64,000 nt of DNA from Lysobacterales bacterium (lineage in GTDB: Bacteria; Pseudomonadota; Gammaproteobacteria; Xanthomonadales; SZUA-38): positions 6,920 through 70,919 of the forward strand of contig JANQOZ010000044.1 in assembly GCA_028285525.1 (NCBI GenBank), given 5' to 3'. Below, one piece after another: positions 48,184-51,567 of the stretch. The notes beneath the pieces are model-generated. The model was not told the DNA's origin. It worked only from the letters and a program-made list of their open reading frames with translations, and did no database searches. A program made the position numbers and the translations under genes. Each line of letters begins with the position of its first letter. Positions within the stretch are counted from its first letter, which is position 1.

Positions 48184-48894
48184 TCAATCGGCGGGTTCCG
48201 CCGCCGCTGCATCCGACCAGGGAATGCCCATTTCGCTGTGCCATCGGTTAACGATGGCACAGAACAATGCGGCGGTCTTTTCCACGTCATAAATTGCGGA
48301 GTGGGCCTCGTTCGCGTCCCAGTCGATGCCGGCGGCCCGTGCAGCCCGTGCCAGCACGGTTTGCCCAAACGCTAGGCCACCCAGCGTAGCGGTATCAAAG
48401 CTGCTGAACGGGTGAAACGGCGAGCGCTTGTAGCCTGTGCGACTGATCGCGGCGTTCAGGAACCCAAGGTCAAAAGAAGGGTTGTGCCCGACCAGGATTG
48501 CGCGACCGCATCCCGCTGTTTTCATGGCCTCACGAATCGGCTGACAAAAGGTCTGAAGCGCCACCTTCTCGTCGACGGCCTGCCTCAGCGGGTGGTCCGG
48601 AATAATGCCCGTGATTTCCATGGATTTGGGATCCAGCACGGACCCGGGAAACGGCTCGACGTGTACGGCAACCGTTGGGCCCGGTTTGACGACGCCGTCA
48701 TCCGTCATTTCGATCGGGCAGCCGGCCATTTCGAGCAGCGCATGCTTCTGACTGTCGAAGCCCCCCGTTTCGAGGTCCACCACAACCGGAAGAAACCCGC
48801 GAAAGCGCCGGGCAATAGGTGATTTTTGCTGACTCAACGAATCTGTCCTGGTTTCCGCGGGCTTGCAGGGAGTGCCAGAGCCGAAGGTTAGCAC
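48184..48894 (-). CDS. rnt: ribonuclease T
   Basis: Contains [18 protein letters not shown] (exo I), [11 protein letters not shown] (exo II) and [12 protein letters not shown] (exo III). An alternative TTG start lies at 48837. Confidence 0.88.
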
Positions 48895-48933: not shown

Positions 48934-49695
48934 TCAGGTTGACGCTGCGGTGCCGAGAATCACTTCGCGCTTAGCGAGATCGGCCAGAATTCCGGTGCCG
49001 GCTTGAACAATCGTTTCCGCGTTTTCCGCACCCAGCTCGCCGGCGATTTGCTCCAGGTAGCGTCGGCCGGTTTGTCCCGGTTCCTGCTGCAGCAGCTGCA
49101 GCAGACGGGCGGTCACAGCGTTCAGCTTAAGAAAGCGAACCTTGTCGTCGTGCCGTCGGTAAATCACCAGATGGGTGGGTTCCTCCGGCGGCGCGTCGGG
49201 CTGAAACTCGGGCTTGATCAGATGCACCGGGTATTCGTAGCTGAGCAGCCACGCCAGCGGCGACAGGACGGGTACGCCGCTGATCAGGTCGCCATCGGGA
49301 TCGGCGGCGACGTCCGACTGCTCCGCCTCGTCCAGGGACAGCGCTAGTTCCGCCCATTCGTAGTGCGCGAGCTCCAGGATGAACGGGGGGTCGCCCTGGT
49401 CCGGTCCTCGGTGGTCCTGCACAAACTGCAGAAACTCCCGCGGCAGCTCCGGGAACAGCGGCGTGTGGGCCCGATGCCTGACAAAAAAGTCCCGCACCAG
49501 CTTGTTCCAGCGCTCTTTGGTGTAGAGCTTCCGCAGCACCGGAAAGTTGTTGGCGATGAATCCCTGGATGTTGTTGAAGAACAGTTCTCGATAGATCGCC
49601 ATCCGGCGATCCTCGATGTCGCCGGGTGCCGGCGTCTGGCTGGGATTACGGATATGGCCGGCGAACTGCCGCTGCAGCTCGCTGAGCCGGGACAT
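48934..49695 (-). CDS. DUF2063-domain protein (partner subunit of DUF692/MNIO enzymes; BufC/MbnC-like role)
   Basis: 253 aa. [18 protein letters not shown]...RRMAIYRELFFNNIQGFIANNFPVLRKL fits the DUF2063 pattern. The ATG shares 1 nt with the DUF692 stop (TGATG at 49693-49697). Confidence 0.8.
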   Translation of the reverse strand: MSRLSELQRQFAGHIRNPSQTPAPGDIEDRRMAIYRELFFNNIQGFIANNFPVLRKLYTKERWNKLVRDFFVRHRAHTPLFPELPREFLQFVQDHRGPDQGDPPFILELAHYEWAELALSLDEAEQSDVAADPDGDLISGVPVLSPLAWLLSYEYPVHLIKPEFQPDAPPEEPTHLVIYRRHDDKVRFLKLNAVTARLLQLLQQEPGQTGRRYLEQIAGELGAENAETIVQAGTGILADLAKREVILGTAAST

Positions 49696-50573
49696 CAGGC
49701 GCTCGCCTGGACCGCGGGTTCGCCGCGCTCGTTTCGCTTGGGCGCCTGCCGCTGGATGCTGCGAATGGTTTCCACCTCGTCGAGCAGTTCGGCGATGGGC
49801 GGGAAGTTGAAGTCGCGCTCCACCAGCGCCGGGAGCGGGCCCCAGAGCTCACGGGCCTGCCGATACAGATCCCACACCGGCGCAATGATTTCAGCGCCAT
49901 GGGTGTCGACGATCAGATCTTCCGCCTCGTTGTAGTGTCCGGCGACATGGCAATACGTGACGCGTTCGCCGGGCAGGGCAGCCAGAAACTCACCGGCGTC
50001 ATACCGATGATTCACGCTGTTGACGTAGATGTTGTTCAGATCCAGAAGGAGATCGCAGTCAGCGCGATCGATCACTTCGTTGATGAACGTGATTTCGTCC
50101 ATCTCCTTACCGGGCGCCGCGTAGTACGACACGTTTTCGATCGCGATGCGGCGATCGAGAATGTCCTGGGTGCGACGAATGCGGGCGGCAACGTATTCCA
50201 CCGCCTCTTCGGTGAAGGGAATCGGCATCAGGTCGTACAGATGACCGTCGTCGCTGCAGTAGCTCAGGTGATCGCTATAAGAGCGGATCTGGTGCTGATC
50301 CAGAAACGCCTTGAGGCGCTTGAGAAAAGTCTCATCAAGCGGGGAGGGGCCGCCGATCGACAGAGACAGACCGTGGCAGACGAACGGATACTTTTCCGTG
50401 TAGCTGCGAAAGGTGCGTCCGAGCCGGCCGCCGACGTTGATCCAGTTTTCCGGCGCCACTTCCCAGAAGTCGACTGCCGGATCAGCTTGGGTTTCGCTGG
50501 CGTGGGAACGCAGCGGGCCCAGGAGGGCCCGCCGCAGCCCAAGTCCAGCTCCTGCAACCGGATGGTTACTCAT
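49695..50573 (-). CDS. DUF692 / UPF0276 family multinuclear non-heme iron oxidative enzyme (MNIO; MbnB/BufB-like)
   Basis: 292 aa. Contains [60 protein letters not shown] and [10 protein letters not shown], a string of DUF692 signature segments. Confidence 0.87.
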
Positions 50574-50597
50574 GGAGTTGGCAGGGTGTTACCGGGT

Positions 50598-51056
50598 TCA
50601 GGCAGCGCCGCCGCACTTGCCTTCGCCACACTTGCCTTCTTCGCCCTTGTCGCCGCCGCAAGAGCCTTCTTCACCCTTGTCGCCGCCACATGAGCCTTCT
50701 TCGCCCTTATCGCCGCCGCAAGAGCCTTCCTCGCCCTTGTCACCGCCGCAGGAGCCTTCTTCACCTTTGTCGCCGCCGCACTTGCCTTCACCGCAGGCGC
50801 CTTCTTCACCTTTGTCGCCGCCGCACTTACCTTCGCCGCAGGCGCCCTCTTCACCCTTGTCGCCGCCGCACTTGCCTTCGCCACAAGAACCCTCAGCGGT
50901 GTCTTTCTCGCCGGCCAGCTCGTAGCCTGCGTTCAGATCGGTCAGCTCGAACGGGTTATCAGCCGCAGCCGCCGTACCCAGGGCAAAGGTGGAAACAAAC
51001 GCTGCGCCAACAGCGGCGGTCAGGGGCTTGATAACGATCGATGATTGCTTGGACAT
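50598..51056 (-). CDS. secreted Cys-rich EGxCG/GDKGE-repeat protein, putative RiPP precursor of the adjacent MNIO enzyme
   Basis: 152 aa with RBS GAGGA upstream of the ATG. It has the Sec signal MSKQSSIVIKPLTAAVGAAFVSTFALGTAAAA and the linker DNPFELTDLNAGYELAGEKDTA. The final 98 aa are tiled from 12 EGxCG (x = S, K or A) and 7 GDKGE units, then GAA. The gene ends 24 nt upstream of the DUF692 gene. Confidence 0.78.
   Translation of the reverse strand: MSKQSSIVIKPLTAAVGAAFVSTFALGTAAAADNPFELTDLNAGYELAGEKDTAEGSCGEGKCGGDKGEEGACGEGKCGGDKGEEGACGEGKCGGDKGEEGSCGGDKGEEGSCGGDKGEEGSCGGDKGEEGSCGGDKGEEGKCGEGKCGGAA
50601..50894 (-). repeat. tandem coding repeats (30-nt SCGGDKGEEG units and 45-nt ACGEGKCGGDKGEEG units)
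   Basis: Read directly from the sequence. The copies differ almost only at synonymous third positions in the EGxCG frame. Confidence 0.9.
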
Positions 51057-51259
51057 GCTTGTAAATCCTCAGTTTTTAATCGTGGCCTTCAGGGCCGTCA
51101 TTCACCGGGCGTTCGCGGCCAAATCCGCTGGCGCCCCTCTCGATGAAACTCGGTTTTCAATCAGTGCCCGGTTACTTCGCAAGTGTGGCGGGTTGGGCAC
51201 AGCTCCCGGTCACGCTCTAAGAGACCCGGGCCTCGAGAAAACGCTTTCATCATTTTTTC

Positions 51260-51289
51260 ATGCAAATCGTTTTTTGTCGATTTTTGCAT
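51260..51289. promoter_or_regulatory. imperfect inverted repeat ATGCAAATCG-N8-CGATTTTTGCAT in an AT-rich patch
   Basis: Arms at 51260-51269 and 51278-51289, about 200 nt upstream of the precursor ATG (minus strand) and about 280 nt upstream of fimT (plus strand). Confidence 0.2.
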
Positions 51290-51567
51290 ACAATTGAGTG
51301 GCTTAGCGTGCGCTGCGGGGCTTGCCGACGGGCTGAAATTCGCGGTTGCGGAGCCCGAGTGGTCGCCTGAGGGCACGGTTCATCCGGCGATGGCCTTATT
51401 TTGCACCGTCAGACGCCGGCGCCCGGAAGTCACAGTGGTTTGCATTTACCGCAGATCGGCGCGAAATAAGACCCTCGTCGACGCCCCTCCACCGCCTGGA
51501 ACACAATAAAAACCGATCATCGGAGATCGCTTGAGAGGGCGCGGCCGCTCACCTATTAATACCGCCC

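Follow-up and report, generated by a model that had tools for sequence, protein, structure and literature searches.

The window analysed here, a 64,000-nt stretch of DNA from a Lysobacterales bacterium, carries on its minus strand a gene assigned to the hvfA family of peptide precursors, followed by hvfB and hvfC (Table 1). The genes are closely packed, with a gap of 24 nt between hvfA and hvfB and an overlap of 1 nt between hvfB and hvfC, and a GAGGA sequence at 51070..51066 lies 9 nt 5' of the hvfA ATG. The same three-gene arrangement was found in 37 of 41 relatives' genomes searched with HvfB, and each of the 30 related loci that were read carries a signal peptide, a DNPF..DL..GY leader and an EGxCG array.

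Table 1. Features of the hvf locus and of the open reading frames that overlap the hvfA repeat array. Pairs are synonymous and non-synonymous differences between repeat copies; CAI, codon adaptation index over the array.
Feature	Position	Strand	Basis
hvfA-family precursor gene, 152 aa	50598..51056	-	ORF list, NF050137 match, homologue search
Predicted Sec signal peptide, residues 1-32, MSKQSSIVIKPLTAAVGAAFVSTFALGTAAAA	50961..51056	-	read by eye from sequence
Conserved leader DNPFELTDLNAGYELAGEKDTA	50895..50960	-	45-sequence alignment
Three 45-nt copies, EG(S/A)CG-EGKCG-GDKGE	50760..50894	-	8 variable columns, 7 at wobble positions
Four 30-nt copies, EGSCG-GDKGE	50640..50759	-	6 variable columns, all at wobble positions
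Terminal EGKCG-EGKCG-GAA	50601..50639	-	in-frame layout
hvfB, MNIO (DUF692) maturase	49695..50573	-	NF003818, 431.8 bits (cut-off 360); PF05114, E=1.2e-103
hvfC, RRE/DUF2063 partner (PME type 1)	48934..49695	-	NF050145, 332.6 bits (cut-off 142); PF09836 and PF22106
Accidental antisense ORF, PSSPLSPP..., 170 codons	50413..50925	+	31/5 pairs, CAI 0.372, no Pfam match
Accidental +1-frame ORF, KKAPAAKVSAAATKV...	50570..50884	-	0-2 vs 14-20 pairs, CAI 0.503
Accidental antisense ORF, RRRKSLL...	50690..51031	+	0 vs 16 and 20 pairs (0/36), CAI 0.480

The hvfA product is composed of a signal peptide, a conserved leader and a 12-Cys repeat core. The signal peptide, which was judged by eye and whose cleavage site is inferred, shows a basic n-region, a hydrophobic stretch of 22 residues and an AxA-type end (AAAA), and is conserved in 30 orthologues. 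An alignment of 45 sequences shows little or no variation at residues N34, P35, F36, L41, G44 and Y45 of the leader. When hvfA is compared with the orthologue of a congener (contig L031, assembled from a public run in Logan), 20 of the 22 differences in the 162 nt that precede the array and encode signal peptide and leader fall at codon position 3. AlphaFold2, run on the precursor with the 45-sequence alignment, gave a pLDDT of 44 and a pTM of 0.13 and predicted no secondary structure, leaving the repeat units without a confident fold.

Searches with the NCBIfam models returned three matched stretches of NF050137 (KCGExKCG_twice; 39.9 bits, cut-off 19.5), and the product failed the equivalog model of H. 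influenzae HvfA, NF050188 (28 bits, cut-off 95). Judged from its sequence, the window gene belongs to the HvfA family and is not an orthologue of the characterised H. influenzae protein. A Pfam search gave no match for the precursor itself, and an exact-protein look-up retrieved no protein identical to the 152-aa product. Among 5.8 billion proteins searched, 2545 homologues of the hvfA product were found at E<=1e-5; those whose source is named include proteins from Xanthomonadales MAGs and one from Elongatibacter sediminis, which NCBI labels an HvfA-family metallophore.

Several further observations concern the surroundings of the cluster. The next gene downstream of the three (48184-48894, minus strand) encodes an RNase T-like exonuclease. 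Upstream, TCGACA-17-AAAAAT with an extended TG (51252-51280, minus strand) is the sole sequence of the region to resemble a sigma-70 promoter; it is a candidate by consensus match only and lies approximately 195 nt from the hvfA start. In L031, Rnf/Nqr-family and endonuclease III-like genes stand between a minor-pilin operon and hvfA (1360-2753 of that contig), and the window has at this place a 511-bp gap (51057-51567). A search for DoxX (HvfX), whose gene is frequent in such clusters but not always present, found none in the locus or on the contig; in the source genome (G000), DoxX matches occur only on contigs C46, C53 and C107. The same genome encodes a second MNIO paralogue, 35% identical to HvfB (G000:C123:17166-17939, minus strand). 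A second EGKCG precursor was not found in the source genome, and this MNIO thus probably serves another precursor type, e.g. a bufferin.

Composition, age and assembly of the repeat array

The last 98 codons of hvfA comprise 12 EGxCG units, in which x is Ser in five cases, Lys in five and Ala in two, together with seven GDKGE spacers, GAA and the stop codon. On the DNA, the units and spacers form 19 in-register blocks of 15 nt that run from 50894 to 50610 on the minus strand. Tandem Repeats Finder detected periods of 30 (4.9 copies, 87% matches), 45 (3.1 copies, 92% matches) and 15. The initial annotation had described four consecutive 30-nt copies that encode one peptide, SCGGDKGEEG in the register used there, with different codons, and this description is accurate. 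The copies, at 50759..50730, 50729..50700, 50699..50670 and 50669..50640, each encode EGSCGGDKGE; they vary in Ser (TCC/TCT/TCA/TCT in this order), Cys (TGC/TGT), Gly (GGC/GGT), Asp (GAC/GAT) and Glu (GAA/GAG), and the variable columns are all at codon position 3 (6/6). The 45-nt copies (50894..50850, 50849..50805 and 50804..50760) had been said to behave in the same manner. This applies to seven of their eight variable columns; the exception, and the sole position-1 column among them, is a change between TCT and GCC (Ser/Ala; 50888/50843/50798), and the first copy reads SCG, not ACG.

Altogether, 13 of the 14 variable columns are located at codon position 3 (binomial p=6e-6 for uniform placement). 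The Nei-Gojobori method, pooled over copy pairs, gave a pS of 0.49 and a pN of 0.008, with a dN/dS of approximately 0.01 among copies; pairwise Fisher tests are only indicative, since the pairs are not independent, and the column counts are the sounder measure. Purifying selection keeps the E, G, C and G residues and the acidic GDKGE spacer, and the synonymous sites have drifted.

Codon choice within the array differs from that of the genome in two respects. The Ser codon of EGSCG is always TCT, TCC or TCA, both in the window (50640-50894) and in the arrays of L002-L006 and L031, and never AGC or TCG; genome-wide, TCT, TCC and TCA make up 6-18% of Ser codons, and AGC and TCG are preferred. Glu is mostly GAA in the array, where the genome prefers GAG. 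This bias possibly reflects the codon set of highly expressed genes or a mutational path between Ala (GCC) and Ser (TCC).

The age of the copies was assessed by comparing the source genome with two relatives, G001 and G006, whose HvfB proteins are 94% and 93% identical to that of the window. The Ser-codon order TCC/TCT/TCA/TCT of the 30-nt copies is common to the three genomes, and wobble differences per codon amount to 0.32 among the copies within the array, compared to 0.20 when the arrays of G000 and G001 are aligned with each other (p=0.06). Based on these two observations, most copies are older than the G000/G001 split. At the same time, whole units have come and gone. G001 carries an additional TCT/TCA pair of 30-nt copies and G006 a second, identical TCA unit; the 45-nt copies number three in G000 and two in each of the relatives, in which a single copy corresponds to copies 2 and 3 of the window (both of the Ala type). 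G001 and G006 differ from each other by one clean 30-nt unit, at a wobble divergence of just 2% in hvfA. The DNA of the terminal EGKCG-EGKCG-GAA segment is near-identical among congeners. As species diverge, the array still gains and loses whole units of 15, 30, 45 or 60 nt through slippage or unequal recombination. The earlier proposal that the copies are not products of recent slippage stands for this array, most of whose copies predate the split, but has to be qualified, since unit insertions and deletions are ongoing within the genus.

Repeat number was also expected to vary between relatives, and comparison of orthologous loci confirmed that it does: the Cys count ranges from 6 to 12 within the genus and from 4 to 18 across 30 loci of the order. 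In the best 120 database homologues it lies between 6 and 10, with a median of 8. The L031 array has 6 Cys and may be a collapsed assembly. Such variation in the Buf_EGKCG family is already published (PMC12452194), for precursors that measure 31-506 residues and contain as many as 58 Cys. Neither the hvfA-hvfB junction nor the 3' end of the array was matched when metagenome contigs were scanned for exact patterns.

A separate observation is that synonymous sites diverge approximately 2- to 7-fold more slowly in hvfA than in hvfB and hvfC. For hvfA, wobble differences between G000 and G001 amount to 0.15 in the 162 nt that precede the array and to 0.20 within it, compared to 0.32 and 0.37 in hvfB/hvfC; between G001 and G006 they are 0.02 in hvfA, compared to 0.14-0.18 (p=0.0005 to 0.04). 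This may be due to high expression or to some other RNA-level constraint.

The heterogeneity of the copies could have a source other than age alone. If arrays of identical units are unstable, selection or survivorship would favour units that differ at synonymous sites. Indeed, no 31-mer occurs twice in the array, whose longest exact internal repeat measures 30 nt; neighbouring copies are 3-5 sites apart, and a difference of just one base is seen only between 30-nt copies 2 and 4, which are not adjacent. Unit indels are, moreover, frequent relative to point changes, as seen between G001 and G006. However, homogeneous runs do persist, both in G004, where seven identical EGSCG 15-mers are found in 27-nt units, and in the two identical adjacent 30-nt copies of G006, and the divergence of 0.32 among copies is not clearly above what simple drift since before the species split would give. 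We thus consider this explanation doubtful.

Repeats of this type also raise the question of whether the 12-Cys copy number is an artefact of an array collapsed or expanded during assembly. Assemblies of relatives do fail inside the EGxCG array, with contig ends in L005, L007, L009 and L010 and a run of N in L016, and the congener contig from Logan has half as many Cys as the window. Repeat counts from drafts and MAGs are therefore often lower bounds. In the window, however, the array is situated mid-contig, its unit order is collinear with those of G001 and G006, and the uniqueness of all its 31-mers makes the assembled path unambiguous at k>=31; an artefact is improbable here.

The predicted product and its chemistry

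The best explanation for the segment 50601..50894 is that it represents the core-peptide part of a minus-strand hvfA-family gene, which would encode a RiPP metallophore precursor of the oxazolin/fontiphorin type ('captophorin', Buf_EGKCG). We consider this reading highly probable. By analogy with characterised systems, the precursor would be made with a Sec signal peptide, its 12 EGxCG cysteines would be oxidised successively to 5-thiooxazole heterocycles by the adjacent MNIO HvfB together with its partner HvfC, and the modified peptide would be exported and would bind Cu(I).

In H. influenzae, all six repeat cysteines of HvfA are modified by HvfB and HvfC, with a loss of 4 Da each. In its modified form the peptide is a high-affinity Cu(I) binder, for which a model of one Cu(I) per pair of modifications was put forward (PMC11252979). 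The modification was subsequently reassigned from oxazolone/thioamide to 5-thiooxazole (PMC12668002; 10.64898/2026.07.17.739211). The 5-thiooxazole and its binding of Cu(I) are known only for HvfA, FonA and NgoA (PMC11252979, PMC12668002). FonBC tolerates Ala, Arg and Thr at position 3 of the motif, and NgoA carries EGSCG units (PMC12668002); the EGSCG and EGACG units of the window are therefore plausible substrates. A point against the metallophore reading is that a peptide with a single EGKCG repeat was not modified by FonBC in vitro (PMC12668002), so that the four EGSCG singlets of the window, set apart by spacers, may not all be modified. The initial annotation had further suggested that the number of EGxCG units sets the number of modifiable Cys sites and, hence, the metal stoichiometry. 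By analogy this would be reasonable, but the matter is unsettled in the literature, where stochastic copper binding and aggregation are suspected rather than a fixed stoichiometry (PMC12668002).

We also considered that the product could bind metal through unmodified Cys thiolates in the manner of a metallothionein, in which case the neighbouring MNIO would be irrelevant. The high Cys/Gly/Glu content of the hvfA product would suit such a role, and binding of about 2-3 Cu has been reported for unmodified HvfA; this binding is weak, however, and the unmodified protein failed in competition with BCA for Cu(I) (PMC11252979). Together with the tight operon coupling to HvfB and HvfC in 30 genomes, and the fact that all characterised EGKCG peptides are modified, this makes an unmodified binder very improbable.

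Synonymy in the overlapping frames

Three other long ORFs cover the same DNA, and the initial annotation regarded them as frame artefacts on the grounds that the wobble pattern betrays selection on the minus-strand EGxCG frame. All three are present at precisely the coordinates that it gave (Table 1). In order to compare the frames, pairwise differences between copies were scored as synonymous or non-synonymous in all six. The sense frame of hvfA yielded 34 synonymous and 2 non-synonymous pairs, the frame of 50413..50925(+) yielded 31 and 5, and the remaining four frames gave at most 4 synonymous pairs, against 32 non-synonymous ones. The test rules out 50570..50884(-) and 50690..51031(+) as genes; a Pfam search of the three rival ORFs gave no match. 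The wobble argument thus succeeds against these two ORFs and fails against 50413..50925(+), the one frame that the substitutions fit essentially as well as they fit hvfA.

The high score of 50413..50925(+) is explained by its third codon positions, which coincide with those of hvfA (at coordinates divisible by 3); this ORF shares its wobble positions with both hvfA and hvfB. A single column separates it from hvfA, that of the TCA Ser codon at 50691, which exchanges Gln and His in the antisense frame. The same behaviour is seen outside the array: when hvfB and hvfC of the source genome are compared with those of its two nearest relatives, 76-84% of the differences that are synonymous in the sense frame are synonymous in that antisense frame as well. 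Quasi-synonymy is thus a generic property of the antisense frame and is unrelated to the repeat.

Codon adaptation separates the two frames. With the genome's own long ORFs as reference, and 3300 windows of 95 codons from real genes for comparison, the sense frame has a CAI of 0.738 over the array, in the top third of real-gene windows (mean 0.69). The value for 50413..50925(+) is lower than that of 3300/3300 windows, and this frame is built from CCT, TCT and TTG instead of CCG, AGC and CTG, the codons that the genome prefers. In addition, 50413..50925(+) starts within hvfB, and in orthologues its open frame ends anywhere between -4 and 368 nt past the array towards hvfB and between 13 and 547 nt past it in the other direction. 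Nearly all of the 30 orthologues keep the rival frames open over the array; since GAR-GGN-AAR-TGY-GGN cannot produce stop codons in them, this openness is a direct consequence of the EGxCG codons, and we discarded it as evidence.

The idea that 50413..50925(+) is a genuine overlapping gene, for which its 170 codons, its 31 of 36 synonymous differences and its openness in nearly all orthologues could be cited, is hardly credible, given that openness and quasi-synonymy are generic to that antisense frame, that its CAI lies under every real-gene window with codons that the genome disfavours, and that it has no family match, a start inside hvfB and limits that are not conserved. The three ORFs are thus frame artefacts, as had been claimed, with codon adaptation, family models, operon context and unconserved limits deciding the case of 50413..50925(+); the selection proposed to act on the minus-strand EGxCG frame is upheld by the 13 wobble columns, CAI, family models and operon context together. 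In general, an argument from wobble positions cannot separate a gene from the antisense frame with which it has third positions in common. As this antisense frame mimics synonymy, claims of this type have to be backed by independent evidence, for example from codon adaptation, family models or the conservation of ORF ends.

Relation to known copper-peptide systems

The locus adds one more ordinary member to a RiPP metallophore family known from publications of 2024-2026, whose variable repeat number is in print, and what is new is the antisense-frame caveat on the wobble argument. The arrays of relatives, with 6, 11, 12 and 18 Cys, may serve as a natural series in which the number of thiooxazoles could be related to copper capacity. 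In a more speculative joint reading, to which we give little weight, array length and unit type would act as a 'capacity dial' for periplasmic copper buffering that evolves fast and is open to selection, the EGSCG-GDKGE singlet would be a separately modified subtype, and the synonymous sites of hvfA would be constrained by expression level or repeat stability. If true, this would explain why hvfA wobble positions diverge slowly alongside a changing number of units.

The bufferins BufA1/BufA2 with BufB/BufC (PMC11626156) resemble the window system in the type of enzyme pair and in the export route and copper-related role predicted for it. Bufferin precursors, however, are DUF2282 or 6/12-Cys domains and have no EGxCG repeats (PMC11626156), and the match to the BufB model, at 268 bits, is under its cut-off of 310.

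[quoted passage not shown] Among the loci read here, L020 and L027 have EF-hand-like inserts (DTDKNGSISKAEMEAA and DTDGDGSISRAEWDAA) between EGKCG blocks, which match the published Buf_EGKCG|EF-hand chimaeras.

As in HvfA/oxazolin of nontypeable H. influenzae, the precursor combines a Sec signal peptide, predicted in our case, with a C-terminal Cys repeat of the EGKCG type, and its gene is adjacent to those for an HvfB-type MNIO and an HvfC partner. The window peptide has 12 Cys where HvfA has 6 modified Cys, arranged in units of 15 aa (doublet and GDKGE) and 10 aa (EGSCG singlet and GDKGE), whereas HvfA has three AEGKCGEGKCG motifs. It is also without the N-terminal disulfide Cys pair of HvfA, and its locus is without a DoxX gene.

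Precursors with repeats of an EGKCG 5-mer are likewise found in the 'captophorins' FonA/fontiphorin of Fontimonas thermophila and NgoA/gonophorin of Neisseria gonorrhoeae. FonA and NgoA are modified to 5-thiooxazoles by PME1-dependent MNIOs (PMC12668002), a modification that is predicted for the window peptide. The spacers differ, being acidic (GDKGE) in the window and Lys/Ala-rich linkers in FonA and NgoA, but NgoA also has EGSCG singlets, as does the array described here.
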